Positions 18,195-57,116 of a stretch of 64,000 nucleotides of DNA are shown here, piece by piece. Positions within the stretch are counted from its first letter, which is position 1. Each line of letters begins with the position of its first letter. The notes beneath the pieces are model-generated. The model was not told the DNA's origin, did not search any database, and was given only the letters and a program-made list of their open reading frames with translations. Origin of the DNA: Candidatus Iainarchaeum sp. (GTDB taxonomy: Archaea; Iainarchaeota; Iainarchaeia; Iainarchaeales; UBA10219); assembly GCA_018304425.1 (NCBI GenBank), contig JAGVWE010000002.1:192001-256000 (forward strand). Reading direction: 5' to 3'. The position numbers were made by a program, and so were the translations under genes.

Positions 18195-18219
18195 TTTAAA
18201 TATTTCGTTGATTGACGAA
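18195..18219 (-). promoter_or_regulatory. Palindromic operator copy 1 (TTCGTTGATTGACGAA, 18204-18219) plus TATA box for the surface-protein gene
   Basis: The minus strand reads TTCGTCAATCAACGAA-A-TATTTAAA; 24 bp are identical to the 23.4-kb copy. Confidence 0.8.
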
Positions 18220-18563
18220 ATTATGGTCTATTCCTGTCGCTGGAGGGCGATTAGGCGGTAATGCCTGCCCTAGGCTGGGCTGGGCCATTAAAGGCCATTT
18301 GGGCTTGGCTAGAGAGCCAGCTACAAACACTTACCGTGTCTGGCTGGGCCTCAAAGAGCCAAAGCCTCAAAGCCAGTTGAACAACCCTTGTATGGCGGTC
18401 ACTGTTTGCAGGTCGCTTTTCTAAAGCCGGTTAATGGTTTGCTCAACTGTTGATGGACTGATGAGGGAAAGCGTTTTAATAGTTGTGGGTTTGAAAAAAC
18501 AACCCGCCTGATTCCGGCGGAAAACAGCTACCATTATAAAGTTTAGGCGAACAATAGTATTTC

Positions 18564-18938
18564 ATGGCGGATGCACACGGCGGGCACGGAGACGCCCATG
18601 GAGGAGCGGGTGCGCACGGCGGCGGACACGGGGATGCCCACGGCGGCGGCTCTTCCCAGGGCGGCGGATGGGGCGGCATGTGGACCACCAAGCACACCGA
18701 CAACTGGTATGACTGGGTGGCAACCGTTGTCTCGGAGCAGGTAAGCACGTTCGTGGCATTCATCTTCTTCATCATCACGGTTGGAGCCGTTTACGGGGCG
18801 CTGGTTGCGGCACGGAACCCGACGATGGAACCTTTCCTCCTCATCGTGCCCGCGGTGCTTGGCCTGATCGCGTTCTACAACCGGGACATCGCGACCCTTT
18901 TCTTCCTCCTCTTCACCGTTGGATTTATCCTAGTGTAA
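18564..18938 (+). CDS. Membrane protein with His/Gly-rich N-terminal tail
   Basis: DAHGG repeats followed by about three TM segments; TTATAAA upstream. Confidence 0.75.
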   Translation: MADAHGGHGDAHGGAGAHGGGHGDAHGGGSSQGGGWGGMWTTKHTDNWYDWVATVVSEQVSTFVAFIFFIITVGAVYGALVAARNPTMEPFLLIVPAVLGLIAFYNRDIATLFFLLFTVGFILV

Positions 18939-18960
18939 TCGAATGGAATGCGGGCTCGGC

Positions 18961-19620
18961 ATGGCAGACGTGACGCTTTCAAGCAGCGAATTCAAGGCCC
19001 TATCCTCCGACACGCGGACGCAGATAATCAAGTATTTGGGCGAGCGGAACTACACCTTATCAGAACTCGCGAAGAAGCTTGGGATGTCCTCGCCCGCGGC
19101 AAAGGAACACCTGGACATCCTGGCAAGAACGGGCCTCGTGCAATTGAATGACGAGGGAAGGAAATGGAAGTACTATGCCTTGACGCGGAAGGGCCGGCAG
19201 CTGCTGGGCGGCGAGGAAAACAGGACCACGTTCCTCATCATCTTATCGGCTTCTGCGATCGCCTTGTTCGGGGTTTTGCTGCTTTTCGCGAATTCATTGA
19301 ATGGAGCCTCCCTGGCTGAGGGGTTTTCGGGGGGCATGACCGGGGAAACGGCTTCCCCCCTGCTGGCCAAGAACGCGGCGGAAGAGGCGTCCACGGCCAT
19401 GACCGTTCAGGCTCCGACGGCGGCTCCCCGGCCTGCCACAGGAACAGCCGAGCAGCCCGCCGACAGCACCCCAGGCCTGAACCAGACCCCGTACCCGGCC
19501 CAAGACCAAGAGGCGTTGGATCGGGCCACGAACGAAACCTACGCTTATCTGGCCCTCGCCCTCGGGCTCTCGGCTTTCATCGGATTCCAGGCGGGCAGGC
19601 TCCGAAGGGACGCCATTTAA
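18961..19620 (+). CDS. Membrane-anchored ArsR-family winged-HTH regulator
   Basis: FKALSSDTRTQII...LSELAKKLGMS...EHLDIL...KYYALT, then a TM, an Ala/Pro/Thr-rich linker and a second TM. Confidence 0.85.
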   Translation: MADVTLSSSEFKALSSDTRTQIIKYLGERNYTLSELAKKLGMSSPAAKEHLDILARTGLVQLNDEGRKWKYYALTRKGRQLLGGEENRTTFLIILSASAIALFGVLLLFANSLNGASLAEGFSGGMTGETASPLLAKNAAEEASTAMTVQAPTAAPRPATGTAEQPADSTPGLNQTPYPAQDQEALDRATNETYAYLALALGLSAFIGFQAGRLRRDAI

Positions 19621-19656
19621 CCGGCCTGATTAATCGGGGCCCCTCCGCTCAAGGCG

Positions 19657-20628
19657 CTAATCCGGCAAGCCATTGAGCTCATAGAAGTAGGTGACGGGAC
19701 TCGGCCTCCCCCGCAGGATCACGCACGATTTTATTTTGGTGATGAGGCGGTTGAACTCCGGCTGCTTGAAAAAGGTGGACGAGAACTCGAAGTACGCGTC
19801 GAGGTCCGCGACCTTCACGGTCATCATGAGGTCATGGGGGGCGGAAATCATGTTCACCTCGTGCACCTGCTCGAATTGGACGAGCTGCCTGGCGAGTTCC
19901 TCGGTCCTGCCTGGCACGGCGTCAAGGAACACAATGGCCTGGAAGTTCACGCCCGCCGGGCCATAGTAGTCCGGGCTGATGATGGCCGTCTTCTTCACGA
20001 CCACTTTTTCCCCGAGCAACCGGCCCCACCGCGTGCTCACCGTGTTCCGGTGCACGCCCAGGTTTGCCGCGACCGCGTTCAGGGAAAGCTCTGGGTCGGC
20101 GAGCTTCAACCGCAAAACATCCCTGTCAAGTTTGGAGAGCCTGAACGAGGAATCGAACTCCCCAACCGGCTTGCCATGCTGCTTGAACGACTTGTTCACG
20201 AAAAAAATCGAGGAACCGTTAATCCAGTGATGGAACTCTTTCTCGATGCCGAGCATGAATTCGATTATTTCCTCGGTGCTCCGCGCGTGCATCTTGAAAG
20301 CCAGGTCATAGTCTCCCGTGACGATGAAAACGATGCGCACCCGGGGGTGCTTGAACAGCCGCGAGATGAATTCATCGATGTCAAAGCGGTTCAGTTTCAG
20401 GGAAACGAACACCCAGACCAGTTGCGGGAGGTTGACCAGCCGCGAGTCCAGGCGGTACTTGTAGCGCTGGATGATGCGCTCGCGCTCGAATTTCCGGACA
20501 ATGTAGTTGACCGTGGAATGGTTGAGCCGCAAGGCCTCCGCGACCTGCCGCTCGGATTCCAGGAGGCCACGCCGGGCGACGTACTGCAAAACCCTGGATT
20601 CGACGGGGGAAAGCACTCTATTCGCCAT
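19657..20628 (-). CDS. Tandem (double) Lrp/AsnC-family regulator
   Basis: Two HTH+RAM units (VTGDYDL; ISAPHDL). Confidence 0.85.
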   Translation of the reverse strand: MANRVLSPVESRVLQYVARRGLLESERQVAEALRLNHSTVNYIVRKFERERIIQRYKYRLDSRLVNLPQLVWVFVSLKLNRFDIDEFISRLFKHPRVRIVFIVTGDYDLAFKMHARSTEEIIEFMLGIEKEFHHWINGSSIFFVNKSFKQHGKPVGEFDSSFRLSKLDRDVLRLKLADPELSLNAVAANLGVHRNTVSTRWGRLLGEKVVVKKTAIISPDYYGPAGVNFQAIVFLDAVPGRTEELARQLVQFEQVHEVNMISAPHDLMMTVKVADLDAYFEFSSTFFKQPEFNRLITKIKSCVILRGRPSPVTYFYELNGLPD

Positions 20629-20762
20629 GGTGTATACTGTAATTGTTTAGAAATATATATAATTTATGCGCAAATGCATGGCAAAAAAGGAGCTATTTTG
20701 TGCAAAAACCCATTCAAAAATATATACTTGGAGGACACCATATATAACGAGGGGGTGGGCGC

Positions 20763-21020
20763 ATGGCAAAGTCAGAATTCTTTAAAGCGCTTGGCATACT
20801 CGCTTCCCTAGTCACGGTGTACCGCGGCATTACCATGGACGTGCCCATGGTGGACACCATCATCATTGTCCTGGTCTCCATCCTGTTCTTCGCCCTCGCA
20901 GCCGAGTTAAAGGTACACGGAAGCCACTGGGAAAGCCCCAATACCGGTGTAGAGCCAGGGCCCTTGCCGGATTTCCTGAAAACGAGCTGCCCCTGCACGG
21001 ACGACGAAGGAGGCGAATGA
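20763..21020 (+). CDS. Small membrane protein divergent from the Lrp gene
   Basis: 85 aa with two hydrophobic segments; GGGGTG RBS; AT-rich shared promoter region. Confidence 0.7.
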   Translation: MAKSEFFKALGILASLVTVYRGITMDVPMVDTIIIVLVSILFFALAAELKVHGSHWESPNTGVEPGPLPDFLKTSCPCTDDEGGE

Positions 21021-21023
21021 AAC

Positions 21024-21050
21024 ATCGACGATTGACGAAATATTTAAATA
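21024..21050 (+). promoter_or_regulatory. Palindromic operator copy 2 (ATCGACGATTGACGAA, 21024-21039) plus TATA box for a pilin gene
   Basis: Two mismatches to consensus; followed by A-TATTTAAATA, 24 nt before the pilin ATG. Confidence 0.75.
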
Positions 21051-21074
21051 TTGTTCGCCTCCTTAATTCCCTCC

Positions 21075-21251
21075 ATGCGACTCGATTCAAGAGCCCAGAT
21101 CTCCATTGAGTTAATCATTGTCCTGGCCGCCGTGGTGGCCATCGTGCTCCTCCTGGTCACGCAATTACAGGAAACCAGCACCGAGGGCAGGGACAAGATT
21201 AAGTCAACGGCCAAGTCGATTTTCGACAAAATCGAGAACGACATCAAATAA
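21075..21251 (+). CDS. Class III signal-peptide pilin (short; candidate major pilin)
   Basis: RAQ-ISIE-LIIVLAAVVAIVLLLV motif; 58 aa. Confidence 0.88.
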   Translation: MRLDSRAQISIELIIVLAAVVAIVLLLVTQLQETSTEGRDKIKSTAKSIFDKIENDIK

Positions 21252-21276: not shown

Positions 21277-21697
21277 ATGAACCCCGCCAACCCCCGGGAA
21301 AAAGGCAAGGGCCAGCTGAGCCTGGAATTCATGCTCCTCCTGGCCGCCTTTCTCTCCTTCCTCTTCCTGCTCCTGCCAGCCATCGAAGAAGTGCTGCGCA
21401 TGGGCTCCTACGGCGTGGACGCGAAGGCCGCGGAACTCTTCTTGAACCGGGCCAGGCAATCGTCGGAACGGCTGCGCGCCGGAAGAAATCGAGGCCTTCG
21501 CCCTCCACGAGTGGAGGCTCTCCGCGGGAGGCGGGGAATTCGACGTGGAAATCGGCGACGGGGAATACCGCAAAAAACTGGGGCTGAAAGCAAGCCCACA
21601 ACTGGCGATTCCGCCTTTCACCTTCACGGGAAAATTCGCGTTGCGGTTGACGAAAGAAGGCGGTTTCGTTTCCGGCTCAATCGTAGAGGGTAATTGA
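21277..21697 (+). pseudogene. Class III signal-peptide pilin with an apparent frameshift near 21475
   Basis: KGQLSLEFMLLL N-terminus. After SSERL the plausible sequence continues in the +1 frame (EEIEAFALHEWRL...FALRLTKEGGFVSGSIVEGN, stop at 21697). Confidence 0.65.
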
Positions 21698-22042
21698 AAG
21701 CCGGCCGAGGGCGCCGGAAGGCGCCGCATAATAAATGGACTCCGTGAACGCGTTCGAAGCGGGTTCGCCGACGGCAACGAACTCGTCGTTGAAACCGATT
21801 CGCCCGCTAAACCCCGGGAACACGCGCCGGAAGTCGGACTCCATTTCAGGCAGGGATGGAATTCCCTGGCCGACCCAGACGACGAGGAGGTCGTGTTGTT
21901 TTTGGAGAAGATAGAGGGGCTTCAGGTCCGGTGCCTCCGCTGGCTTGGTGGATAGGAGCACGAGCACCAGCACCGCGAAGCCCAGCAAGGCTTCCAGGGA
22001 AAAGTAGAGCCCGCGTTCATCCATGCGCTTACGTTCATCCAT
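21677..22042 (-). CDS. Minor pilin-like protein
   Basis: ERG-LYFSLE-ALLGFAVLVLVLL. Confidence 0.75.
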   Translation of the reverse strand: MDERKRMDERGLYFSLEALLGFAVLVLVLLSTKPAEAPDLKPLYLLQKQHDLLVVWVGQGIPSLPEMESDFRRVFPGFSGRIGFNDEFVAVGEPASNAFTESIYYAAPSGALGRLSITLYD

Positions 22043-22505
22043 CGCAGAACACCCCGATGAGGAGGGCCTTTTCCTTGCCGACGAGGACCAGGCGCTCGAA
22101 CGAATAACAGGTAGTACTGGCCTGGTTGGCTGGACCGGTTAGGGGCTTGTCTGCCCACTGGGTTTCAGGGCCATTGAAGGGAACGAGGCGCAGGGACTGG
22201 AGGAGGGGAAAACCCTGGAGTTCCGGTGCGGTGGGTGCGGGGGACAGAAAGTTCGGGGTCACCCGGTGCAGGCCGGAATCGAATGCAGCCAACCCCGGAA
22301 AAGACTGGGAGGCATCGTTTTTGACGAGGGCATCCAGGAAGAAGAGGCCCTGCCGCTGCAGGCGGTAGGCTGGCAGGGCGGAGGCGGAGTGCAGGGCGAG
22401 GCTGGAAAGGAAGGCGAGGCCAGCCAGGGAAGTAAGCAGGAGGATGACCACGGCCAGCAGCAAGTCCGTGGAAAAGAGCAGGCCCCGTTCACTTGTAGTG
22501 TTCAA
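22035..22505 (-). CDS. Minor pilin-like protein
   Basis: ERG-LLFSTD-LLLAVVILLL. Confidence 0.75.
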   Translation of the reverse strand: MNTTSERGLLFSTDLLLAVVILLLTSLAGLAFLSSLALHSASALPAYRLQRQGLFFLDALVKNDASQSFPGLAAFDSGLHRVTPNFLSPAPTAPELQGFPLLQSLRLVPFNGPETQWADKPLTGPANQASTTCYSFERLVLVGKEKALLIGVFCDG

Positions 22506-22860
22506 GGACGTTCACCCGGAGTTTTTGCCCGTCGAATTCGGCGTGGGCTGAAAGAATGGAAGCGGAATGGATGGCTTGACCGGAGGAGGCGCTGGCCGCG
22601 TGGTCGGAGAACCCGCAGGGCAAGGCTGTTGAGAGTTCGCCTCCGGCGTTCGAGTAAAGGGAGTCGGCCAGCGTCGCGCAGGACTCCGCTTCGAGGAACG
22701 AGTGGAGGGCATGCCCTGCATCCATGGCCTGGAAGGAAATGTCCTGCCAGGTTCCCACCATCAGGGAGAGGACGGCAAGCAGGGCCGCAAGGGCTGCCAT
22801 GGCTTCCAGGCTGAGCGCGCCTTGCTGCTTGCCCACGCGAACCGGGTTCAAGGAGTGCAC
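22489..22860 (-). CDS. Minor pilin-like protein
   Basis: KQQG-ALSLE-AMAALAALLAVL. Confidence 0.75.
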   Translation of the reverse strand: MHSLNPVRVGKQQGALSLEAMAALAALLAVLSLMVGTWQDISFQAMDAGHALHSFLEAESCATLADSLYSNAGGELSTALPCGFSDHAASASSGQAIHSASILSAHAEFDGQKLRVNVLEHYK

Positions 22861-23396
22861 GCTCCCACCTTCAACGCGGTGACCGTGTAATTGGGCGGCA
22901 AGGAAAAGGATTGCATGTAGTCGTCGAAGCGGATGCGGGCCTGGATGGTGTCGTCCGCGTCGCGGGCCGCGTTATGGAATTCCGCGAAAACGATGCCGTT
23001 GACTTCGTGGAGGAGAACCTTGAAGCGGCTGCGGAGGAACGCATAGTCGATGGCGCCCGCGTTTGAATGGAATTCCACGGCGGGAAAACCTGGGTGAACG
23101 GCCTGTGACTGCTGGACAAAGGCCAGGAAGTTTGCCGCCAACCGGTCTTCGATGGCATTGGTTTCCCTCGCACCCTGGTCGAGTTGTTCTTGGAGGGTGC
23201 CGCGGAGGACGCGGTCCGCGTTGAGCTCGAGTTCCGATCGAACGAAGTTGGTTTTCTCGGCCTGCACGGCAAGCGTGGTGGCCTGGCCCAGGGAAGACGC
23301 AGCCAGGGAGGAAAAGCCGAGGACCAGGAAGAGCGTGAACAGGATGGCCAGGACCAGGGCAGTCGAAAAAAAGGCACGGGAAGTCATGGATACCAC
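22848..23396 (-). CDS. Minor pilin-like protein (first gene of the cassette)
   Basis: SRA-FFSTALVLAILFTLFLVL; overlaps the next gene. Confidence 0.7.
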   Translation of the reverse strand: MVSMTSRAFFSTALVLAILFTLFLVLGFSSLAASSLGQATTLAVQAEKTNFVRSELELNADRVLRGTLQEQLDQGARETNAIEDRLAANFLAFVQQSQAVHPGFPAVEFHSNAGAIDYAFLRSRFKVLLHEVNGIVFAEFHNAARDADDTIQARIRFDDYMQSFSLPPNYTVTALKVGACTP

Positions 23397-23418
23397 ACTT
23401 AATACGAGGAAAAAATAG

Positions 23419-23442
23419 TTAAATATTTCGTTGATTGACGAA
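23419..23442 (-). promoter_or_regulatory. Palindromic operator copy 3 (TTCGTTGATTGACGAA, 23427-23442) plus TATA box for the minor-pilin cassette
   Basis: The minus strand reads TTCGTCAATCAACGAA-A-TATTTAA, in the 46-bp gap before the 23396 gene. Confidence 0.8.
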
Positions 23443-24018
23443 TTATTGGATTATGACTTTTTCGGGGGTGGTGAGGAAGAGAAACGGCTTGACGCCCACT
23501 TTTACCTGGGCGCCGCGCTTGCACGGGGTCTGGCACGAAACCACGTAATTGCCGGCGCTGACCCCTGCCAGGAGGTCGAACTCCACGTGGACGGCCGCAA
23601 GCTGCCCATCGCAGACGATGACCGTTGCATCTACCACGCGCTTGGAGAAAAACAAGCGGAACCAGGCAAAGAAGGCAATGAGGCCGGCCAGCAGCCACAC
23701 CGAGTAATTGAACTGCGCCAGCAAGACCTGGGACTGGAAGAACCAGGCGGCCTGGGCGAACAGCCAGACCCCGGCAAAAAACAGGAAATAGGCCTTGAAC
23801 TCCCGGCCGGTGACGCGCCGGAATTCAACGACCAACAGGAAAAAGTAAACCAGGGAAAGCACGGCCTGCGCCGACAAGAACATGGAATCGGAAAGCGTGT
23901 TGCGGGCGAAACCCAGCAACAACAGGCCGATGACCATCACCTGCAGGGACGCCGCAAGCAAAGTCTTGCGGCTCACGCCCTTGAACCATTTCCCAAGAAG
24001 AGTCCTGGATGCACGCAT
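23443..24018 (-). CDS. Four-TM membrane protein with a small C-terminal beta domain (pilus operon)
   Basis: Hydrophobic segments; last gene of the contiguous minus-strand pilus operon. Confidence 0.75.
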   Translation of the reverse strand: MRASRTLLGKWFKGVSRKTLLAASLQVMVIGLLLLGFARNTLSDSMFLSAQAVLSLVYFFLLVVEFRRVTGREFKAYFLFFAGVWLFAQAAWFFQSQVLLAQFNYSVWLLAGLIAFFAWFRLFFSKRVVDATVIVCDGQLAAVHVEFDLLAGVSAGNYVVSCQTPCKRGAQVKVGVKPFLFLTTPEKVIIQ

Positions 24019-24022
24019 GCCT

Positions 24023-24406
24023 TCACCCCTCTCCCTGGAGGACTTCCACGTGCACGGACTTGTACCGGGTCCGGTGCCGGATTTTTTCGGAAAGCGATTC
24101 CAGGTCCTGCTTCACGCGGGCTTCAAGCAACGGCGCAAACGGTTGGAGGTGCAAGGACAAGGCAATCGATTCAGGGCCTTCCACGAAAGCGATGCGCTCG
24201 ATGTGGTAAGCGGAAGCCGAAGCGGAGAGTTCCGCGGACGCGAGCGCCTTGAGGGAGGCCACGGCCACGGTGGAATCGCGGACTTCGAGGAAAGCCGAAA
24301 GCGATAGCACGGCCAAAAAGAGCACGGCTGCGGCCACGATGACGAGTTCCAGGCTGGCCTGGCCACGGGAACGGGTTTTCCCCCCGTCTTTCCTCCCTTC
24401 ACTCAA
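24023..24406 (-). CDS. Class III signal-peptide pilin
   Basis: RGQ-ASLE-LVIVAAAVLFLAVL. Confidence 0.85.
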   Translation of the reverse strand: MSEGRKDGGKTRSRGQASLELVIVAAAVLFLAVLSLSAFLEVRDSTVAVASLKALASAELSASASAYHIERIAFVEGPESIALSLHLQPFAPLLEARVKQDLESLSEKIRHRTRYKSVHVEVLQGEG

Positions 24407-24887
24407 CGGTTACCACCCCGCTGACTTTCTCGATGGAAACGGTTTTCCAGCCCGGGCCCTGCCAGGCACGGGTGCGGCACCCGAGCTTGAAACCCGGGCC
24501 AAAGGCCTTTGAGTGGCTGCATTGGAAGTCGTCGTTGTCCTGGTCCTGCGCGCATGCCGGAACCCGTTCCAGGGAGGGGTCCAGGGAGACCGCAAAGGAC
24601 AGGCTGGCCTGGCCGGCATCACAGGAAAGCCGGGTCTGGGCTGGCAGGAACACTTCAAGGGTGCGCCTGGATTCCCCGGTCGAGTGGCCGACCCAGGCAA
24701 TGGAGTCATGCACCGCGTCAAAGGCCAGCCGCGCCTTTCCAACGGAGCCAACGTCTTGGACGGCCTTCGAGGAAAGCTGCACCATGGGAAGGGTCGAGGT
24801 CTGAAGGTAGAGCAGCATGGCCATGACCAGCAGCATGAGTTCCAAGGAGACCTGGGCACGCGCGTTCAACGGAATACCACCCGCCAC
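24399..24887 (-). CDS. Class III signal-peptide pilin
   Basis: RAQ-VSLE-LMLLVMAMLL; C-terminal VSIEKVSGVVTVE. Confidence 0.85.
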   Translation of the reverse strand: MAGGIPLNARAQVSLELMLLVMAMLLYLQTSTLPMVQLSSKAVQDVGSVGKARLAFDAVHDSIAWVGHSTGESRRTLEVFLPAQTRLSCDAGQASLSFAVSLDPSLERVPACAQDQDNDDFQCSHSKAFGPGFKLGCRTRAWQGPGWKTVSIEKVSGVVTVE

Positions 24888-26026
24888 AAGACGTCTCCCA
24901 CGGATTGGAGGACCAGGTACGCGATGAGCACTGCGGGAACAAAGGGCGCACTGCGCTTCACTTTGATGGTTTCCGGGAGGAGTTTCCTGGCCGCGAGTTC
25001 CCTCAATTTCCTGGCTTCCTCGTCCGTCAAGCCCGCAGCCCGCACACTATTGGCAACGATGCCGCCTTCCGGCAAAACCATCCGGGCCTGCAAGCCCCTG
25101 AAGTCCAGGCGCCGGGCAAAGGAAAGGATTTCACTGGGGCGAAGGGGTTTGACCACCACCAGCTTGCCTGCCACGGATTCGACGATGGTCTCGGCCGGAA
25201 TCATGCCTTCCACGAGGCTCGCCGTTGGAACGCGTTGCTTCAGCACTTCCTCTTTGCTGACCAGGTAGAGTTTGAAGAACACGTAGAACAAGAGCAGGGG
25301 CGCAAAGTATTTCATGGCCTCAAAGAAGGGAATCAGGTAATAGACGTAGGAAGCATAGGCGAACGAGGCCAGGGTGAAGGCGAGCACGACGAGGCTAGGC
25401 AGGAAGGAAAGTGCCAGGAGCAGGGGCCACACCGAGGCCTCGGGCAAGCCCAGGGCATAGGTCACGGCCAGCAAGCCGACCCCGAGCAGGCTGAATTGAA
25501 GCAGTTGCCAGCCTCGCTTCACGAAGCCGGAGAGGAACTGTTGGCGGAGCAACGCGCTCTTGTAGAAGCCCATGAGGCTGAGCAGCACGCCGTACGGCAT
25601 CATGGAGAAAACGCTGAAAACGAACAAGGCCAGGGGAAAGACCGGCAGGGAAAGGGAGGCAAACAGTTCGGGTTTCCCGGGCCATAGCAGAGCATCCAGG
25701 GAAAACGCGTCCCGGATGAAGCCATAGTTGACCGGGTTCAAGGCCGCGAGGGCCGCGAACAACTTCACGTCGCCCCCGGCCCAGACCCCCACGTGCCACA
25801 AGGCATAGGCGCCCAGGAAGGAGAGAACCGTGACTGCAAGGGCCTGGACGAAGAGCATGTAATCATTGCCCGACACAGCGAGGAAGAAGTGGCCGGCCAA
25901 GCCGAACGCAATCAAGGCATAGGTGAGCTTGTCCGGGATTTCCCTGGACTTCAAATCGGTGTAAGTGGCCAGCACCAGGCCGGCCAAGGACGCGGCGAAA
26001 AAAACGGTTTCAAGCAAGGCAATCAA
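24866..26026 (-). CDS. Prepilin peptidase, family A24 (EppA-like)
   Basis: TDLKSREIPD, AGGDVKL (GxGD-type), C-terminal PFVPAV. Confidence 0.92.
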   Translation of the reverse strand: MIALLETVFFAASLAGLVLATYTDLKSREIPDKLTYALIAFGLAGHFFLAVSGNDYMLFVQALAVTVLSFLGAYALWHVGVWAGGDVKLFAALAALNPVNYGFIRDAFSLDALLWPGKPELFASLSLPVFPLALFVFSVFSMMPYGVLLSLMGFYKSALLRQQFLSGFVKRGWQLLQFSLLGVGLLAVTYALGLPEASVWPLLLALSFLPSLVVLAFTLASFAYASYVYYLIPFFEAMKYFAPLLLFYVFFKLYLVSKEEVLKQRVPTASLVEGMIPAETIVESVAGKLVVVKPLRPSEILSFARRLDFRGLQARMVLPEGGIVANSVRAAGLTDEEARKLRELAARKLLPETIKVKRSAPFVPAVLIAYLVLQSVGDVLWRVVFR

Positions 26027-26199
26027 CTCATCAGCTGCGCAATCATGTTTTCCCGGTACTCGAGGATTTTGGCCTTCGCCTGCTGGGACAACCCGGAGAG
26101 GTTCAAGGCCAGCACGGCGGCTGCGGCCGCCAAGATGATGGCGAACATCACGGTCAACAGGTATTCAAGGGAAACCTGCGCCCTGGTTTCACGAAACAT
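26023..26199 (-). CDS. Short class III signal-peptide pilin
   Basis: MFRETRAQ-VSLE-YLLTVMFAIILAAAAAVL. Confidence 0.88.
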   Translation of the reverse strand: MFRETRAQVSLEYLLTVMFAIILAAAAAVLALNLSGLSQQAKAKILEYRENMIAQLMS

Positions 26200-26332
26200 T
26201 GAAATCACGCAAGAACCCCGGCCGGGCCTTTGCAAGGCTCAGGACGTACAAGCCCACGATTACCGCGATGACGAGGAGCAAGGCCAGCAAGAGCAAGACC
26301 TCCATGGATGACTGGGCTTTCTGGTCGCTCAA
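26189..26332 (-). CDS. 47-aa class III signal-peptide pilin (not in the ORF track)
   Basis: Manual translation MSDQKAQ-SSME-VLLLLALLLVIAVIVGLYVLSLAKARPGFLRDFNVS; TTG overlaps the upstream TGA. Confidence 0.8.
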   Translation of the reverse strand: MSDQKAQSSMEVLLLLALLLVIAVIVGLYVLSLAKARPGFLRDFNVS

Positions 26333-27231
26333 ACGATTCCCCCGATCAACGCCTTGCCAAGGGCCTTGGAAAGGGCGTATACCCCGAACGCGATGAACAA
26401 TAGGATTGGCAGATATATAATGCTTTTGCCTGGCCGGCCCTCCCGCATCAGGGAAACCATGACGCTGGTGGCCAGGATCTCGATGAACAGGTATGCTTCA
26501 ATGAGGAGGGAAATGAGGGCCGTGGCCTGGACGGACTGCGCGAGCACTTCGGCTGGAACGGAGCCTGCCGCAGCCCCGGAGAGCACGCCCAGGATGGTGG
26601 ACACGAACCCGAAAATGAGGGGCGCGACGAATGCCGCGGCCGTCACCAGCAACATGGACTGCATCAGGGTGCTTGACTTGCGCTCGCGGTTGATGCGCTG
26701 CATGGCGCGCAGGTCCTCCGCGATGTCATCCAAGACCTCAGCGAGGCCAGCACCGCTGCGCACGGATTCCACGACCAGGGAAACCGTGCGCTTGACCAGG
26801 GTCGAGTCAACCGAGTCGGCAAAGGACTTCATGGCGGTTTCGAAGTTCTCGCCTTCCTCGAGTTTCCGCACGACCTGGGCGAACCCGGTCTGGAGGGGGC
26901 CATGCCCGGAAACCACTATCTCGCGGAGGCTGGACTCATACGTCGAACCCGCTTTCAGGGTGTCGCTCATCTGCTTGAGGGCATCCACCAGCGAGGCCTC
27001 GACGGACTCGATGCGCTTGACGGCCTGGAAGTAGGGGAAGCCGATGCAGAGGTCGGCGAGCACGACGAACAAGAGCACGGCGAGACGCGCATCCACCGGA
27101 AAAACGAGGAAGGCGGCGGCCGCTGAAACCAGCAAGGACAACAGAATCCAGGCCACGGCGTTGAACCGGAACCCCGAGTGCCGCAGGTACTTGGAATAGC
27201 GTTCGAGCAGGGTTTGGGGAGAGGAGGGCAT
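26329..27231 (-). CDS. Type II secretion F-family (TadC-like) pilus platform protein
   Basis: DALKQMSDTLKAG, SGAGLAEVLDDIAED, multiple TMs. Confidence 0.9.
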   Translation of the reverse strand: MPSSPQTLLERYSKYLRHSGFRFNAVAWILLSLLVSAAAAFLVFPVDARLAVLLFVVLADLCIGFPYFQAVKRIESVEASLVDALKQMSDTLKAGSTYESSLREIVVSGHGPLQTGFAQVVRKLEEGENFETAMKSFADSVDSTLVKRTVSLVVESVRSGAGLAEVLDDIAEDLRAMQRINRERKSSTLMQSMLLVTAAAFVAPLIFGFVSTILGVLSGAAAGSVPAEVLAQSVQATALISLLIEAYLFIEILATSVMVSLMREGRPGKSIIYLPILLFIAFGVYALSKALGKALIGGIV

Positions 27232-27234
27232 GCA

Positions 27235-28389
27235 TTACACCTTGGGCTGGGAGTAAACAAGGTAAGCGATTAGGTATAACAACAGCACGGGCAACGCGAC
27301 GAGGAACGCGAAGGCCATGGCCTCTGGGGAAAGCACGGCCGCCCCGACCCCGATGGGGGCGTTGGTGATGCCGGCAATGATGGCGATGAACACCGGCAAG
27401 ACCACGGCGGTGACGATGAAGATGACGCCGAAGAAATTCATTTTCTCGGAAAAGTCGCGGGTGCGCATCCGCAACTCAAAGGAAACGTCTTCCGCTATCT
27501 GGCTCATGGCCTCCGAGAGGTTGCCGCCCATGCGCAGCGCGCGGTTGACGTGGAGGAGAGCGCGACGCAATGCCGTGGACTGGGTGCGGCGCGCGAACCG
27601 CTCGATGGCGTCCTTCGTCTCGGCGCCTTCCTCGATTTCGTTGACGGTCCGGGAAAATTCCTCGCTCAGCACGCCATAGTCCGCCGCCGCAATGTCCTGG
27701 AAGGACTTGTACAAGCCAACGCCCGTGTGCAACTGGGTGGCCATCTGGCGCAAGGCAAAGGGGAGTTCCCCGCTCGCCTGTTCCCCGCGTTTGATTGCCA
27801 GGGCCTTCGGCAGGGACAGGAAGGTCAGGGCCGCGGCCAGGAAGACGACGAGCGTGGAAAGGATGACGGCCAAGGCCTTGGCCTGGAATTCGGCCTGCCA
27901 GGGGACGGCGAAATACGCGGAGACCAGCAGGGCTAGCAGCCCGGCCAAGAACGAGGCCGCAGAAACCAGCACCATGAACTGTTTTTGGGTGAGCGGGAGG
28001 CCCGCGCTCGACAAGAAGTAACCCGTGTCCCGGGCCTGGGGCAGGCTGGACAAAACGAAGTCAATGGAAGCCGTTACGGGCCGGCATAAGAGGTAGAACC
28101 GCGCCAGGAAGCGGTCAAAGAAGTGCCTGGATTCCAGGAGCCAGGGAATGGCCTGGAATTCGAGTGCCTGGGTTCCGGCAATGCCTTCCCGGAGCACGCC
28201 GAGTTTTCCTTCCACGGCGGCTTCCTCGCCGAAAGCCATGCCCTGGGCGGCATACTTTTTCTTGATGTTCTCCACCAACCGGTCCACGGCAGGCAAAACG
28301 GTTTCAGGTTCGTCCCTGGCCGGTGCGGTGCCCTGCCTGGGCGCGCGCTGTTCCACGATTTTCTTCTTCAACTCGCTCAAGTCGGCCAT
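27235..28389 (-). CDS. Type II secretion F-family (TadB/C-like) pilus platform protein
   Basis: ELPFALRQMATQLHTGVG, YGVLSEEF, GGNLSEAM. Confidence 0.9.
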   Translation of the reverse strand: MADLSELKKKIVEQRAPRQGTAPARDEPETVLPAVDRLVENIKKKYAAQGMAFGEEAAVEGKLGVLREGIAGTQALEFQAIPWLLESRHFFDRFLARFYLLCRPVTASIDFVLSSLPQARDTGYFLSSAGLPLTQKQFMVLVSAASFLAGLLALLVSAYFAVPWQAEFQAKALAVILSTLVVFLAAALTFLSLPKALAIKRGEQASGELPFALRQMATQLHTGVGLYKSFQDIAAADYGVLSEEFSRTVNEIEEGAETKDAIERFARRTQSTALRRALLHVNRALRMGGNLSEAMSQIAEDVSFELRMRTRDFSEKMNFFGVIFIVTAVVLPVFIAIIAGITNAPIGVGAAVLSPEAMAFAFLVALPVLLLYLIAYLVYSQPKV

Positions 28390-28395
28390 TCAAAC

Positions 28396-30033
28396 CTACT
28401 CTCTTTGCCTTCGCGTCAACAGGAAGTCCTGGCACCGCTTGGAGACCTCTGCAATGCCGCGCACGCCCTGCCGGGCGAGGCTCGCAAGGAAGGTGGCACG
28501 GTCCGCCAACTCGGCATCCAATTGCTTGCGGTTGAAGGCGCTGAACTTCTCGAGTTCTCGCAGGAAGCTGATGGGCGTGGGCGTGCGCCTGAAAGAATCG
28601 CTCGCGGCATCCCACTCGAAAACGGTTTGCGTGGTGGTTCGGCCTTCGAGGACGCCCAGGACTTCCGCGACTTCCGTGACGCGGCGGATGGTTCCCTTCT
28701 TCTTGTCGTGGATGCGGTGCTCGATTACCACGAAGTCAAGGCCGGAAAGCATGACCTCGGGGACGCTCATGGGCGGGCTCGTGATGCGGACGATGGCTTC
28801 CTTGGGCGAGTTCGCGTGAACCGTTCCCATCGAGCCCCGGTGCCCGGTGTTCATGGCCGTGAACAGGGAAAAGGCTTCCTCGTGCCTCACTTCCCCAACG
28901 ATGATGCGGTCGGGGCGCATGCGCAACGCGTTCTTGGTGAGGATGTCCAAGGCCAGCTCCCCCGTGCCCTCCAAGCCAGGGGGCCTGGCTTCCAAGCGCA
29001 CCCAGTGCATCAGCGGCAGGGCGAGTTCCGCCGTGTCCTCAATCGAGACAATGCGTTCCCGGGCCGGGATGAACGAGGCCAAGACGTTCAAGGTCGTGGT
29101 CTTCCCCGAACCCGTGCCCCCTGCAATCAGGATGTTGGCCGGCTTCACGCCCAGGCCCTCGACGCACAACCAGAAAAAGGCCGCGAGCCCCGCATCCACC
29201 GTGCCCAAGCGAATCAAGTCCACAATAGAGTACGGGTCTTCCCGGAACTTCCGGATGGTCAACGTGGAACCGTCCACGCTGGCCGGGGGAATGGTGGCGT
29301 TGACCCGGCTCCCGTCCGGGAGGCGCGCGTCCAGCAACGGGCTCGAAATGTCCACTCTTCGCCCGACCTGCCGCGCGATTTTGCTGATCAGGTCCTGGAC
29401 TTCGTTGTCATTGTAGAACTCGATGTTGGTCAACATCATCTCGTGGTCGCGGTGGTAGACGTAGACCGGTTTCTGGGGCCCGATGACCATGATTTCTTCG
29501 AGGCGGTCGTCGCGGACCAAGGAATCGATGATGCCGTAGCCCACCATTTCCCGGACAACCGCTTCGGCGTAGAAGCCATAGCGGTGCTCCGGAATCTTCA
29601 GCTCGGGCGAAGCCCGCAGGATTTCCATGACCTTCTGGTAGTAGACGTTGCGGCGTTCTTCCGCGTCCCGGATGCGGTACGGGGAAACGCTGATGAGCCT
29701 CGTCGCGGCCTCCTTGATGGTGTTGATGACGGCTTTCTCGGCTGCGGTGGGACGCGGGACCGGGACCTGGTAGTAAAGCATGGGCTCGCCGGCCACCCGG
29801 TAAACCGTTACCTCGCCATATTTTTCGACCACGGTTTTCTTGGCCTGCTCGAAGGCAGCGGTTGCCACGGGCCTGGCCCTGGCGGCGGCCTCGGCAGTGG
29901 TCCCGACCACAACCGGTTCAGGGCCTGACTCCAAGGGGATGTCGGCTTCCGCCGTCTTCCCCGCCGGTGCCGGCGCATCCCGGGCCCGCTTTTCCTTGGC
30001 CCGCTCAATCATTTCATTCAAGTAGTCAGCCAC
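28396..30033 (-). CDS. CpaF/TadA/VirB11-family pilus assembly ATPase
   Basis: DARLPDGSRV, GGTGSGKTT, IEDTAEL, LRMRPDRIIVGEVR, TGHRGSMGTVHAN; GTG start at 30033 inferred. Confidence 0.95.
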   Translation of the reverse strand: MADYLNEMIERAKEKRARDAPAPAGKTAEADIPLESGPEPVVVGTTAEAAARARPVATAAFEQAKKTVVEKYGEVTVYRVAGEPMLYYQVPVPRPTAAEKAVINTIKEAATRLISVSPYRIRDAEERRNVYYQKVMEILRASPELKIPEHRYGFYAEAVVREMVGYGIIDSLVRDDRLEEIMVIGPQKPVYVYHRDHEMMLTNIEFYNDNEVQDLISKIARQVGRRVDISSPLLDARLPDGSRVNATIPPASVDGSTLTIRKFREDPYSIVDLIRLGTVDAGLAAFFWLCVEGLGVKPANILIAGGTGSGKTTTLNVLASFIPARERIVSIEDTAELALPLMHWVRLEARPPGLEGTGELALDILTKNALRMRPDRIIVGEVRHEEAFSLFTAMNTGHRGSMGTVHANSPKEAIVRITSPPMSVPEVMLSGLDFVVIEHRIHDKKKGTIRRVTEVAEVLGVLEGRTTTQTVFEWDAASDSFRRTPTPISFLRELEKFSAFNRKQLDAELADRATFLASLARQGVRGIAEVSKRCQDFLLTRRQRE

Positions 30034-30133
30034 GCCCAAAACCCCGTGAAATAAGGGATTTAAGTAATTTAAACCCATTGGCGGGAAGGAAAAAAGCGAT
30101 AATCCTATTAAGGGGGAGAAAAGAGATACTACC

Positions 30134-49167: not shown

Positions 49168-49175
49168 GCGGGGGA

Positions 49176-54200: not shown

Positions 54201-54857
54201 GCGGCTGCCACCGAATCGGAGGCCAACTTCATCCCCATCAAGGGCCCCGAGCTGTTCAGCAAGTGGGTGGGCGAGAGTTCGAAGGGCATCCGGAAGGTGT
54301 TCCAGCGCGCGCGGCAGGTTAGCCCCTGCATCATTTTCTTCGACGAGTTCGACTCGGTGGCGACCCGGCGGGGCCACGGGGATGATTCGGGCGTCAGCGA
54401 GCGCGTGGTCAACCAGTTGCTGACCGAACTCGACGGGGTAGTTGAGTTGAAGGACGTGGTGTTCGTGGCCGCGACGAACCGGCCGGACCTGATTGACCCG
54501 GGAGTCATGCGACCGGGGAGGATTGACAAGGTCATCAAGGTGCCCGCACCCGACGAGAAGTCGAGGCTGCAGGTGTTCAAGGTGCACACCAAGAACGTGC
54601 CGATGGCAAAGGACGTGGACTTGAACGCACTGGCGAAGCAAACGGTTGGCTATAGCGGGGCTGACCTGGAGGGAGTGATAAGGGAAGCCGCCTTGATCAG
54701 CTTGAAGGAAAGCGACATGAAGCCGGGCGTGGTTACCTGGAAGCACTTCGAACTCGCCTTGAAGAAGATTCCGCCCAGCCTGCCAGAGGAAATCACGAAG
54801 GCCTATGATGCTTTCAGGGTGCAGCAGGCGGACTTCAAGCCCAGCTACATCGAGTGA
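51219..54857 (+). CDS. cdc48: CDC48/VCP-family AAA+ ATPase (intein-containing)
   Basis: N-domain plus two AAA modules ([14 protein letters not shown] and [14 protein letters not shown]), RRPGRFD. Confidence 0.96.
51984..53438 (+). mobile_element. Intein in cdc48 (485 aa) with LAGLIDADG endonuclease
   Basis: APALM|CVG... and ...LVMHN|SKFVGE junctions; LLGLMYSEG and LQGFWEGDG motifs. Confidence 0.93.
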
Positions 54858-54876
54858 CGGATTTTTTTGGGTTGGC

Positions 54877-55467
54877 TTAGAAGAAGCCGAGGCCCACGGC
54901 TTTTGAGCCCAGGATGGTGCCGAAGAAGGCGAGGCCCCACACCAACGGATTCCAGGTGAAGACCTTGGAGCCGTCCAGGGGAAAAATGGGGATGAGGTTG
55001 AAGGTGGCGAGGCCGAAGTTGATGCTCGCGCCATAGGCTGTGATGAGGCCCAGTAACTCAGGGGGGTGGAAGAATAGGTAGGCGAGCGTGAACAGGCAGC
55101 CCAACACAATGTTGGTCAGGGGCCCGGCCAGGGAGATGAAGCCGTTTTGCTTGCGGGAAAGGTTGTCGGAAAAGATGTAGACCGCGCCGGGTGCCGCGAA
55201 GACGACACCGAAAACCGCGGCCATGACGACGGCGAGGACGAGGCCGGACTGCCACATGCGGTACTCGGCGTGCGCGCCGAAGCGGATGGCGACATACTTG
55301 TGCGCGAGTTCGTGGAAGATGAAGCCCGTGCCGGTGGCGACCAAGACGATGGGCATGAGCCGGAAGAAGTCGCCGAACTGGAAGATGCCGCCGCCAAAGG
55401 CCCAGGCAAAGGCCACGCTGATGGTGAGCCAGCTGATGAGGATTTCGTTGCGTTCGCGGTCTTCCAT
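54877..55467 (-). CDS. Site-2 protease (M50) intramembrane metalloprotease
   Basis: HELAH, AGPLTN, FNLIPIFPLDG. Confidence 0.92.
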   Translation of the reverse strand: MEDRERNEILISWLTISVAFAWAFGGGIFQFGDFFRLMPIVLVATGTGFIFHELAHKYVAIRFGAHAEYRMWQSGLVLAVVMAAVFGVVFAAPGAVYIFSDNLSRKQNGFISLAGPLTNIVLGCLFTLAYLFFHPPELLGLITAYGASINFGLATFNLIPIFPLDGSKVFTWNPLVWGLAFFGTILGSKAVGLGFF

Positions 55468-55512
55468 GGTTCTCCAAGGAGTGTAAGGGGAAAAAAGATA
55501 TAAATAGATAAT

Positions 55513-55536
55513 TTCGTTAATCGACGAATATTTAAG
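55513..55536 (+). promoter_or_regulatory. Palindromic operator copy 4 (TTCGTTAATCGACGAA, 55513-55528) plus TATA box, in a divergent promoter
   Basis: Followed directly by TATTTAAG before the OB-fold gene. A TTTATAT box for the S2P gene lies on the other side. Confidence 0.78.
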
Positions 55537-55558
55537 GGGTTCGTTTCATGGGCTTATA

Positions 55559-55921
55559 ATGGAGTTAAGCGACCAGCTGATTGGGTTCGCGGCGGCAGGG
55601 TGCGCGGTGATAGGGCTGGGCCTGCTCTTCTACGGGTTGCAGGCCGCTGAACCCCTCCCCCTACGAATTGCGGAAATCGATGAAACGCTGGCCGGAAAAA
55701 AAGTGGCGCTCCAGGGAACCGTGGAGTGGACGCGGCAAGCCAAGACTGCGTTGCTCGCGGGGTTGAAGGACGGAGAGGAAATCACGGTGGTTGCCTTCAA
55801 GCCCGGTGAAGGGGAACTGCGCCTGCTCCGGAAAGGCGGCACCGTGAAAGTGATTGGCCGAATCCAGGAATACCGCGGCGAACTCGAAGTAGTCATCGAA
55901 CGCGTTGAAGCACTTGACTGA
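55559..55921 (+). CDS. Membrane-anchored OB-fold nucleic-acid-binding protein
   Basis: N-terminal TM, then KVALQGTV...LKDG.EITVVAF...VKVIGRIQEYRGELEV. Confidence 0.8.
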   Translation: MELSDQLIGFAAAGCAVIGLGLLFYGLQAAEPLPLRIAEIDETLAGKKVALQGTVEWTRQAKTALLAGLKDGEEITVVAFKPGEGELRLLRKGGTVKVIGRIQEYRGELEVVIERVEALD

Positions 55922-57116
55922 AGAACTGCTCTGGCTGATACTGGGCTGGCTGCTCGGAGTAGTTGCGGGACTGCTTCCCGGCATCCACGCGAACACGATT
56001 TCCTTTCTGCTGCTCGGCTTCGCCGCCAACACGGGTCAACCCGACAAATGGGCCTATGTCGTCGTGGGCATGAACATCGTGCAGGCCTTCGTGGACTTCA
56101 TCCCCAACATCTTCCTGGGACTGCCGGACAGCGAAGCCTTTGCCTCCCTCCTCCCGGGGCACCGGTTTCTCGCAAAGGGCAAGGGCTTGTACGCGGTGAG
56201 GCTGGGCATTATCGGCGCGCTGAGTGGAAGCCTCCTCGCAGCCCTGCTGTTCCCCTTGTTCGCTGGTTTCCTTGCGAAAGCCCTTGACTTCGTGGAAGCC
56301 ATCATCCCCTTGGCGCTTGGACTCGTGCTGGTATCCCTGGTGGCAGGGGAAAGGGATTGGAAGAAACGAGGACAGGCCGTGGCCGTGATTGCCTTGGCCG
56401 GCGGGTTCGGGTTACTGACACTGCCCTCCAGCGCGTTCGCGGACCCCTTGTTTCCCGCCATCACCGGGTTATTCGGGGTGGCAGGGCTCCTGAACGGCTT
56501 GCGAGGGGAAAACCGGGTGCCCGAACAACTTGACGGCATAAGCCCCCTCAAGCCCAAAAACCTCTTGGAGGGCGGCGTGCTCGGCTCCCTCGCGGCAGGC
56601 ATCGTTGCCCTGTTGCCGGCCATCGGACCCGGAGAAGCCTCCTACCTGCTCATGAAGTTGTTCAAGAAAACGAGTGCCAGCCTCTACTTGATCATCGTCG
56701 GCTGCATCAACGCCGCGAACCTCTTGTTCAGCTTCCTCTTCCTCTACTTGCTGGGGAAGACGAGGACCGGCGCCGCAGCCGCCCTGGAAAGGCTTGGCCT
56801 GCTGGACGCGCCCACCCTGGTTGCCGTCACGGGCGCAAGCCTGGTGAGCGCGGCGGCGGGTGCCTGGCTGTGCCTGTGGCTGGCCAAGGCAGCCGCCAAA
56901 AAAATAAGCCAAGTCAACTACCGGTCGCTGAACGCGGGCGTGATTTGCTTCCTGGGAGCCATTGTTTTTCTCCTGCAAGGCCTGCCCGGCCTGCTGGTGC
57001 TCGTCGTAGGCACCGCGATCGGGCTGGTCCCGCTGGCGTTCGGGGTGCGGCGCGCGCACGCCATGAGCTACTTGATGGTGCCCACGCTGGCCTACTACCT
57101 TGGCTTCCCAGGATAA
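55905..57116 (+). CDS. DUF112/TctA-like multi-pass membrane transporter
   Basis: GLLPGIHAN, FVDFIPNIFLGLPD, LLPGH, GLFG; about 12 TMs. Confidence 0.85.
   Translation: MKHLTEELLWLILGWLLGVVAGLLPGIHANTISFLLLGFAANTGQPDKWAYVVVGMNIVQAFVDFIPNIFLGLPDSEAFASLLPGHRFLAKGKGLYAVRLGIIGALSGSLLAALLFPLFAGFLAKALDFVEAIIPLALGLVLVSLVAGERDWKKRGQAVAVIALAGGFGLLTLPSSAFADPLFPAITGLFGVAGLLNGLRGENRVPEQLDGISPLKPKNLLEGGVLGSLAAGIVALLPAIGPGEASYLLMKLFKKTSASLYLIIVGCINAANLLFSFLFLYLLGKTRTGAAAALERLGLLDAPTLVAVTGASLVSAAAGAWLCLWLAKAAAKKISQVNYRSLNAGVICFLGAIVFLLQGLPGLLVLVVGTAIGLVPLAFGVRRAHAMSYLMVPTLAYYLGFPG

Follow-up and report, generated by a model that had tools for sequence, protein, structure and literature searches.

Bacterial competence regulons, such as those of ComK, ComX and Sxy/CRP-S, rely on one cis element to join pilus genes with genes for DNA import. 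To our knowledge, archaea lack ComEC, and the sole parts list for archaeal DNA import is that of one methanogen transposon screen. Here we describe a palindromic promoter element from a 64,000-nucleotide (nt) stretch of DNA of the DPANN archaeon Candidatus Iainarchaeum sp. (GenBank assembly GCA_018304425.1, contig JAGVWE010000002.1). This stretch, hereafter the window, spans positions 192001-256000 of contig C1 of the source genome, G000 (1.48 Mb, 58% GC, 7 contigs, 92.55% complete); C numbers denote contigs of that genome, other G numbers denote its relatives, and bare coordinates count from the first base of the window. The element is very probably a genuine operator with a regulon of its own, and on balance we favour a reading in which this regulon is conserved, includes an Epd-type pilus and an OB-fold/TctA-like protein pair, is governed by a membrane-anchored ArsR-type regulator and serves DNA uptake. 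In its logic the arrangement is like the bacterial regulons, with a shared promoter element that would co-regulate pilus and membrane DNA-import genes at unlinked loci; it differs in its archaeal core promoter, built of B recognition element (BRE) and TATA box, in the lack of ComEC and ComEA, in the class of its candidate regulator, and in the presence of toxin-antitoxin (TA) operons.

The methanogen screen provides the experimental counterpart. In Methanococcus maripaludis JJ, according to the cited sections of Fonseca et al. (2023; PMC10133366), most transformation-defective transposon mutants fell in type IV-like pilus genes, and clean deletions of MMJJ_13020 (OB fold, one transmembrane (TM) helix) or MMJJ_13030 (TctA-like, 11 TM helices) abolished transformation and were complemented; deletion of the TctA-like gene in Methanoculleus thermophilus likewise abolished transformation. 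A peptidase M50 gene, MMJJ_13210, was hit once and is listed among genes 'predicted to be or be in operons with' DNA/RNA-binding proteins, and the authors state that competence regulation in Methanococcus is unknown (PMC10133366). Three gene classes among those of the regulon described below (pili, OB/TctA, M50) were thus also recovered in one independent transformation screen, and the likeness extends to an OB protein of about 120 aa with one TM helix and a PF01336 domain, encoded before a TctA-family protein of about 400 aa, to the lack of TctB and TctC, and to a pilus with a short pilin, two platform genes and its own A24 peptidase. In Methanococcus the genes were found singly in the screen, and no common promoter element or regulator is reported in those sections, whereas here one operator joins them, in a DPANN lineage; the Methanococcus M50 hit is a single insertion for which the same sections describe no clean deletion, and nothing motif-linked here corresponds to the thermonuclease, ArtE and MinD-type hits. 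A role for the OB/TctA-like pair as candidate DNA importer has therefore been published before (Fonseca et al., 2023); what is new is the shared operator, the regulon and the candidate regulator. Our search of titles and abstracts in the literature found no description of the operator, of the conserved regulon or of the supercluster of regulator and M50 genes.

The operator consensus is a 16-base palindrome, TTCGTCAATTGACGAA, whose half-sites TTCG and CGAA stand exactly 8 nt apart. An earlier reading of this DNA from its sequence only (the sequence-only reading) had placed four copies in the window, and a scan with TTCGTYRATYRACGAA returned those positions, without mismatches at 18204, 23427 and 55513 and with two mismatches at 21024; chance would give 0.13 matches, and at least four occurred in none of 100 shuffles. 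All four copies lie in short non-coding gaps, and the flanking sequence also agrees with the TATA box that had been described 0-1 nt from each: TATTTAA(A/C/G) follows on the minus strand at 18204 and 23427 and on the plus strand at 21024 and 55513. Copy 1 (18204..18219, exact, 26.6 bits) adjoins a TATA-like box at 18191-18203 on the minus strand, for an 874-aa gene; copy 2 (21024..21039, 2 mismatches, 20.6 bits) adjoins one at 21040-21052 on the plus strand, for the major pilin gene; copy 3 (23427..23442, exact, 26.6 bits), directly past the stop codon of the upstream assembly operon, adjoins one at 23413-23426 on the minus strand, for a minor-pilin cassette; and copy 4 (55513..55528, exact, 26.6 bits) lies between divergent TATA-like boxes, the second of them on the side opposite the TATTTAA. 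Copies 1 and 3 do share the 24 identical bases claimed for them, namely the 16-mer plus 8 bases of the TATA side. The genes named earlier as lying downstream (an 873/874-aa secreted protein, a 58-aa pilin, a four-gene cassette, and OB-fold and TctA-family genes) were recovered as well; missing from that description was an M50 peptidase gene, which diverges from the copy at 55513.

The geometry of these promoters is tightly constrained. Where flanking genes run in the same direction the order is operator, TATA box, gene; the 3' end of the operator lies about 3 nt before the TATA octamer and the ATG 30-35 nt past the operator, and in all seven pilin genes seen (G000, G013, G016, G023, G025, G039, G078) the ATG falls 33-35 nt past it. 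Because the ATG is so close, the transcripts are probably leaderless or nearly so, and given such short leaders the operator would sit at about -48 to -33, touching the BRE. As a separate observation, many operator promoters of the source genome carry a further TTGTTCGG-like element just past the TATA box, at a distance of some 14 nt from the proximal CGAA, so that the TATA box is bracketed by CGAA ... TTCG; this element, perhaps a third half-site or else a promoter-proximal feature common to these copies, lies 13-22 nt past the operator, for instance at 21053-21060 in the window and at C1:14174, C1:29978, C1:124992 and C5:118952 in the genome.

Beyond the window, the source genome holds 7 exact copies, 13 at up to one mismatch and 26 at up to two. 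A weight matrix built from the operator sequences gave 23 matches of at least 18 bits, against none in the reversed genome used as control, and 25 against 1 at a threshold of at least 16 bits. Twenty of the 23 fall between called genes and about 20 are promoter-associated, so the 'four-copy' description holds for the window and not for the genome. Gene calls were made with a simple codon-usage caller that sets some starts wrongly (e.g. at C1:13351 and at the start of ATPase 2, see below), and one of the three 'genic' matches, that at C1:13351, is an artefact of this caller. Six sites serve seven surface or membrane promoters, namely those of the 874-aa protein, the major pilin, the minor-pilin cassette, the OB/TctA pair with its divergent M50 gene, a lipoprotein, and the neighbourhood of a second pilus-type ATPase.

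Conservation in 30 relatives, of the same order and different families, carries the case that the motif ties unlinked loci into one regulon, as had been proposed. Motif matches exceeded those in reversed controls in G013 (7 versus 0), G025 (6 versus 1), G023 (4 versus 0), G015 (3 versus 0) and G027 (3 versus 0); G016 was not enriched at one mismatch (5 versus 4), and its exact degenerate pattern gave 5 versus 2. The sequence-only reading had allowed that the motif might not be conserved in orthologous promoters. Nineteen of 24 sites fetched from six relatives (locus GC 32-54%) precede orthologues of the same genes, in several families: the OB gene (5), the major pilin (4), the minor-pilin cassette (4, at three of which the M50 gene diverges), the lipoprotein (3) and ATPase 2 (3). 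The remaining five sites lie ahead of genes for a PIN protein, a GIY-YIG protein and an unrelated large secreted protein, of a distant TRAM-like open reading frame (ORF) and of an unknown ORF of 155 aa. Orthology was supported by BLASTP (lipoprotein, E-values from 2e-67 to 3e-43; pilin, 48-58% identity; first minor pilin, 1e-14 to 7e-06; ATPase 2, 44-56% identity to the relatives' copies versus 34-35% to ATPase 1) and is also backed by Pfam. The spacing of the half-sites is itself conserved, as TWCG-N8-CGWA occurs no more than 110 nt before the OB gene in 12 of 26 genomes and no more than 170 nt before the M50 gene in 15 of 30 (reversed controls, 1 and 3, respectively), while spacings of N5, N6, N7, N9, N10 and N11 were each found in 0 genomes. 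In several families only half-sites survive, at a position 5-12 nt more distant from the ATG.

Downstream of copy 4, a 120-aa OB-fold protein with one N-terminal TM helix (55559..55921, plus strand; PF01336, 28.7 bits against a cut-off of 27) is followed by a membrane protein of the TctA family (403 aa; 55905..57116, plus strand; PF01970, E-value 4.5e-41), the start of which overlaps the OB gene. The solved relatives nearest to the OB profile are RPA32-type OB folds that bind single-stranded DNA, along with YhaM and the anticodon-binding domains of AspRS, and the nearest Atlas clusters are OB-fold proteins of 118-127 aa, the closest from Iainarchaeota and some others from Methanobacteriota. 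A single N-terminal hydrophobic segment is present in all 26 OB orthologues; the positive-inside count for the side of the OB domain, which the sequence-only reading had proposed to be extracellular, was 9 of 26. A crude hydropathy count gives 10 segments for the TctA-like protein of the window and 7-13 among orthologues. The TctA-like gene is present in 71 of 81 genomes of the order, and its pairing with the OB gene is persistent: the two overlap in all five relatives first examined, and among the best 30 TctA-like loci 28 have a small ORF directly upstream, usually with an 8-nt overlap, 26 of these 28 encoding at most 135 aa with the N-terminal hydrophobic segment typical of OB proteins.

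A predicted complex of the two proteins, from alignments of 26 rows each, reached an interface score (ipSAE) of 0.66, against 0.00 for the best of three controls, with at least 90% of contacts agreeing between runs and a predicted local distance difference test (pLDDT) value of at least 79 for the partners. Of 157 solved complexes 116 reach the pass mark used, as do 2 of 215 mismatched pairs; these rates are a rough guide here since we used alignments of our own. We found no solved relative of the TctA-like chain by sequence, and the pass is therefore unlikely to reflect recall of a known complex. In the predicted model the TM helix of the OB protein (residues 1-30) packs against TctA residues 96-113, 211-217 and 301-324. 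Part of the earlier proposal that pilus, OB-fold protein and DUF112/TctA act together thus gains support from the predicted binding, while the possible channel role given there to DUF112/TctA had been published in 2023. The lack of ComEC noted for the window extends to the source genome, which at 92.55% completeness has no family match to TctB, TctC, ComEC or SNase (thermonuclease) and only a 15.4-bit, below-cut-off match to DprA.

The pilus, for its part, is of the Epd type. The cited sections of PMC13705601 describe the 'system 1' filament as one ATPase, two platform genes, a short non-globular pilin and a dedicated class III signal peptidase, and the corresponding features are present here by Pfam: T2SSE, two T2SSF genes, a Peptidase_A24 protein with Arc_PepC, and a 58-aa pilin with a class III signal (21075..21251, plus strand, ATG 35 nt past the operator) that has no globular domain. 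As pili and the OB/TctA-like pair are genetically required for transformation in methanogens, DNA uptake is the most likely output of the regulon, which we hold to be somewhat more probable than not with DNA itself as the inferred cargo. The same operator and regulon might instead serve adhesion or host attachment, remodelling the surface of an episymbiotic DPANN cell, with the OB/TctA pair importing or sensing something else. Epd-type pili do contribute to adhesion (PMC13705601, in the sections cited), the regulon holds large secreted proteins and lipoproteins without assigned function, the molecular role of OB/TctA in transformation is undefined even in Methanococcus according to the cited sections of PMC10133366, and DprA above its cut-off, thermonuclease and ComEC all went unmatched in this genome, as noted. 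Yet the sole genetics for the OB/TctA pair, in two methanogens, points to transformation in the sections cited, the OB fold is of a nucleic-acid-binding type, and pili, OB/TctA and M50 all came from one transformation screen. We regard adhesion as an unlikely output, albeit the foremost among the alternatives.

A candidate for the protein that binds the operator lies between copies 1 and 2, which flank a two-gene operon encoding a small His/Gly-rich membrane protein with hydrophobic segments (18564..18938, plus strand) and a 225-aa ArsR-type winged helix-turn-helix (wHTH) protein (18943..19620, plus strand). The wHTH domain matches HTH_5 of Pfam (39.5 bits against a cut-off of 22, E-value 5.1e-10) and falls short of NF033788 (51.6 bits, cut-off 55); its nearest solved structures are Phr of Pyrococcus furiosus (2p4w, E-value 4.2e-08) and HlyU. 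An AlphaFold2 model (mean pLDDT 75) shows a confident wHTH at residues 14-89; a TM-like helix spans 91-121 and a second helix 189-224, with a disordered stretch between them (122-188). The TM-like segment directly follows the wHTH in all 25 orthologues, and 15 of them have a second near the C-terminus. Across the order the reading helix and the wing hardly vary, which fits the conserved operator. Members of the family were recovered from 73 of 81 genomes, among them all 38 of high quality, and an ArsR-type wHTH gene with a TM-like segment stands beside the pilin gene in G000, G013, G023 and G025, directly or nearly upstream of it in the three relatives. The operator occurs within 1.5 kb of 11 of 30 regulator loci, against three reversed-control matches in total, and five of these show a pilin 33-34 nt after it. 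Regulator and M50 genes are both present in 66 genomes, share a contig in 39 and lie less than 10 kb apart in 31, typically at 3-4.5 kb; given this proximity in most same-contig genomes, the ancestral layout, as far as synteny can tell, is regulator, pilin operon, minor-pilin cassette and M50. In G000 the M50 gene has moved 36 kb, to a place next to OB/TctA, and still lies against an operator copy. The small His/Gly/Asp-rich protein is encoded just upstream of the regulator in all four genomes aligned (source and three relatives) and could be a metal-binding or sensing partner.

The plan of this protein recalls ArnR and ArnR1, the membrane-bound one-component regulators that control type IV filament genes in Sulfolobus acidocaldarius (PMC6396743, in the sections cited; Lassak et al., 2013, cited there). 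ArnR boxes (TCGAC-N5-GTCGA) lie just upstream of BRE/TATA, and ArnR also binds the aapF and upsX promoters (PMC6396743). Both ArnR and the candidate combine an N-terminal HTH with a C-terminal membrane anchor, and the candidate has type IV filament promoters among its putative targets. In ArnR, however, a HAMP and a sensor domain lie between HTH and TM helices, whereas Pfam reports only HTH families here, with a TM helix right after the wHTH and then a disordered linker; ArnR has two boxes, at -43 to -84 in the sections cited, whereas here one box of different sequence and spacing abuts the TATA box. With no HAMP or sensor domain detected, we do not file the candidate as a member of the ArnR family. 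The ArsR/SmtB family offers a second likeness, in the wHTH of HTH_5 type and the profile match to Phr (2p4w), and a second contrast, in that its listed known members are soluble, unlike the candidate and its orthologues with their TM-like helix past the wHTH.

From synteny, the chance that this ArsR-type protein is the operator binder seems to us close to even. The operator could instead be read by its main rival, an Lrp/AsnC-type regulator such as the tandem double Lrp encoded at 19657..20616 (minus strand), or by another soluble factor. Lrp-type genes stand beside the pilin gene in G000 and G016, and synteny cannot tell a binder from a neighbour; the sites of archaeal Lrp proteins are imperfect palindromes of 13-17 bp around an A/T-rich centre (discussion of PMC6396743, as cited); and the ArsR-type gene has no operator at its own promoter, hence no sign of autoregulation. 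Against an Lrp stands the fact that no Lrp gene was seen beside the pilin in G013, G023 or G025, where the gene of the TM-bearing ArsR-type protein is, and that this gene keeps company with M50 in the 31 of 39 same-contig cases given above. An Lrp or other soluble factor is, in our estimate, improbable, by a shade more so than an adhesive output.

In the mechanism that we favour, one dimeric transcription regulator, conserved across a DPANN order (probably Iainarchaeales), would bind the dyad next to the BRE and so switch a pilus-dependent DNA-uptake apparatus on or off. The conserved core of its regulon would comprise the Epd-type major pilin operon, the minor-pilin cassette, the M50 protease, the OB-fold/TctA pair, the orphan lipoprotein and the second pilus-type ATPase, and the most likely regulator would be the membrane-anchored ArsR-type protein encoded beside the pilin gene, which in this role would resemble ArnR. 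Whether the bound protein would activate or repress is a narrow call, which we give to activation by a slight preference. Activation suits the distance between operator and TATA box, which varies from 0 to about 12 nt among families and on the M50 side, and the use of the operator between divergent promoters; repression suits the near-consensus TATA boxes and the BRE-like half-site, which a bound protein would occlude.

The M50 protein (196 aa; 54877..55467, minus strand) is an intramembrane metalloprotease of the site-2 type, diverging from operator copy 4. The hallmarks of such proteases are HExxH and LDG motifs in membrane helices; here PF02163 matches with 45 bits against a cut-off of 27.2, and H52, E53 and H56 together with L164, D165 and G166 are invariant in the alignment. 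In bacteria, M50 site-2 proteases (RseP/YaeL) act on the membrane-bound regulators RseA and TcpP. The likeness to this locus is a membrane-tethered DNA-binding regulator and an M50 protease in one conserved cluster; in contrast, the protease here is small (about 200 aa) with no PDZ domain reported by Pfam, and cleavage is conjecture. Gene linkage and regulon membership suggest that M50 might process the tethered regulator, which we consider rather doubtful. A fuller circuit, in which the tethered ArsR-type regulator senses an envelope cue, is processed or released by M50 and controls, across the order, the first cis-defined archaeal competence regulon (Epd pilus and OB/TctA DNA importer), is likewise an unlikely proposition. 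If true, it would explain the M50 gene in the Methanococcus transformation screen.

Two further regulon members lie outside the window. A lipobox protein of 1385 aa with a Cys-rich conserved N-terminal region (C3:19630-23787, plus strand; operator at C3:19581) is a conserved operator-linked member in G013, G016 and G025; it has no Pfam match at E-values up to 1, no NCBIfam match and no usable Atlas match (0.77). A second T2SSE-family ATPase (ATPase 2; C3:314524-316035, minus strand; operator at C3:316039), distinct from that of the pilus operon, adjoins an operator copy in all four genomes checked, with varying distance and geometry (relatives L037, L038 and L044). If the order-wide circuit were true, the orphan lipoprotein and ATPase 2 would be new parts of the archaeal DNA-uptake machine, with TA modules on the same switch.

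Several observations weigh against the reading that we favour, in addition to the adhesive use of Epd pili, the Lrp genes and sites, and the bare promoter of the candidate regulator, all described above. Some concern coverage. The strict pattern is missing from the promoters of 14 of 26 OB and 15 of 30 M50 orthologues, the 1.5 kb to either side of the regulator gene hold no operator at 19 of 30 loci, none is found in the promoter gap of the pilus assembly operon (30079-30133), and no motif-linked orthologue of the 874-aa protein was found by BLASTP among the relatives' operator-linked ORFs. The likeness to the Methanococcus proteins is one of Pfam family, size, TM architecture and adjacency, not of direct alignment. 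Others concern the company that the operator keeps in the source genome, where about 13 of the roughly 20 promoter copies precede TA or similar small operons, one abuts the gene for ribosomal protein L44e, and another precedes an unknown 87-aa ORF; operator promoters stand over only 10 of the genome's 23 PIN genes; and the strong TATA side of the copy at C1:29978 faces no gene. An operator devoted to competence, as first proposed, does not agree with these counts, and since most source-genome copies front TA or other small operons the regulon is broader than DNA uptake. The sequence-only reading had also held that a motif common before unrelated housekeeping genes would be just an extended BRE; the TA operons and L44e go some way towards such a distribution, while the genome-wide occurrence is non-random and distinct from the BRE.

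That no dedicated regulator exists, and that the palindrome is an extended or doubled BRE, a strong or bidirectional core-promoter element or a site for an alternative TFB, is suggested by the proximal half-site, since CGAA followed by A/T resembles the common BRE of this genome (218 oriented sites of the form 'CGWA + A/T-rich 9-mer'), by the A/T-rich boxes on both sides of several copies and by the service of the 55513 copy to divergent genes. However, the distal partner TWCG stands at the exact spacing in only 22 of those 218 BRE/TATA-like sites (about 1.6 by chance, by simple arithmetic), the distal side of most copies has neither TATA box nor gene, and in several relatives the motif has shifted, as noted, away from the ATG and off the BRE. 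The N8 spacing and dyad symmetry also suit a dimer. We consider this explanation very unlikely, and reject a generic extended BRE on the rarity of the distal half-site and the shifted motif of the relatives.

Being palindromic, the operator would regulate whatever sits on either side, and in the source genome it has also been taken up by many TA promoters. The antitoxins under it are of RHH, MazE/AbrB, wHTH and unknown type and the toxins PIN, MazF, ParE, GNAT and possibly AbiE-like; TA modules diverge from the promoter of the pilin in G025 and from those of the lipoprotein in both G000 and G025. A further possibility, that antitoxins regulate their own genes through the motif or that it belongs to a mobile promoter cassette carried about by TA modules, and that it lies beside pilus genes by accident, would accord with the predominance of TA operons behind the source-genome copies and with the TTGTTCGG-like extra bases past the TATA box in many of them, as duplicated cassettes would have, but we reject it as highly improbable given the differing antitoxin families, the exact-pattern sites of G016 (5/5; 1 contig, 99% complete) and G023 (4/4) before non-TA regulon genes, and the fact that sites in different genomes have only 16 bp and the TATA box in common. 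For the TA copies we also considered a promoter on the opposite strand, with the motif between TATA box and start; this is unlikely, as one-directional contexts show motif, TATA box and gene in that order, and might apply at C1:29978 and C7:17735.

Two operator copies in the source genome, at C1:29978 and C1:28259, have a strong TATA module facing a stretch of 177-222 nt without a convincing ORF, which might encode a small RNA or an antisense transcript, or else point to a promoter read the other way. Adjoining them are two paralogous proteins of 247 and 265 aa with no Pfam match, the first with a winged-helix-like N-terminus by eye.

The remaining genes of the pilus locus complete the picture. 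The 873/874-aa secreted protein (15548..18169, minus strand), with CBM96/DNRLRE and Big_7 domains, starts about 34 nt past operator copy 1. Between that copy and the regulator operon lies a non-coding gap of 344 nt (18220-18563), in an otherwise compact genome; it has no Rfam match, as is true of the whole window (0 families), and folds no better than shuffles (z = -1.39). After the major pilin comes a second pilin-like gene (21277..21664, plus strand) that is apparently frameshifted in the assembly, with a change of frame near 21480-21512. Four relatives have an intact version of 137-142 aa, and the gene here could have decayed to a pseudogene or reflect an error of assembly. The four-gene minor-pilin-like cassette (21677..23387, minus strand; 121/156/123/179 aa) has the same layout in the relatives, and its proteins have no Pfam match even at E-values up to 1. 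Upstream of it, beyond operator copy 3, lies the pilus assembly operon (23443..30078, minus strand), with its T2SSE ATPase, two T2SSF genes, A24 prepilin peptidase, further class III signal proteins and DUF2101. Near the M50 gene, a CDC48-type AAA ATPase gene (51219-54857, plus strand) carries an intein with a LAGLIDADG homing endonuclease (Pfam Intein_splicing, LAGLIDADG_3), and the CDC48-like gene beside the M50 gene of one relative has an intein remnant (L043:5745-6434).

Archaeal DNA import is poorly known, and the methanogen parts list left its regulation unsettled. An operator common to pilin, minor-pilin, OB/TctA-like and M50 genes, and retained in many families, provides independent evidence, from comparison, that these parts act in concert. 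It also names candidates for further parts, in the membrane-anchored regulator, the orphan lipoprotein and the second ATPase, and provides a sequence handle, TTCG-N8-CGAA next to a TATA box, with which further members may be found. The DNA-uptake system would thereby extend to DPANN archaea, which, to judge by the small size of their genomes, may depend on scavenged nucleotides.

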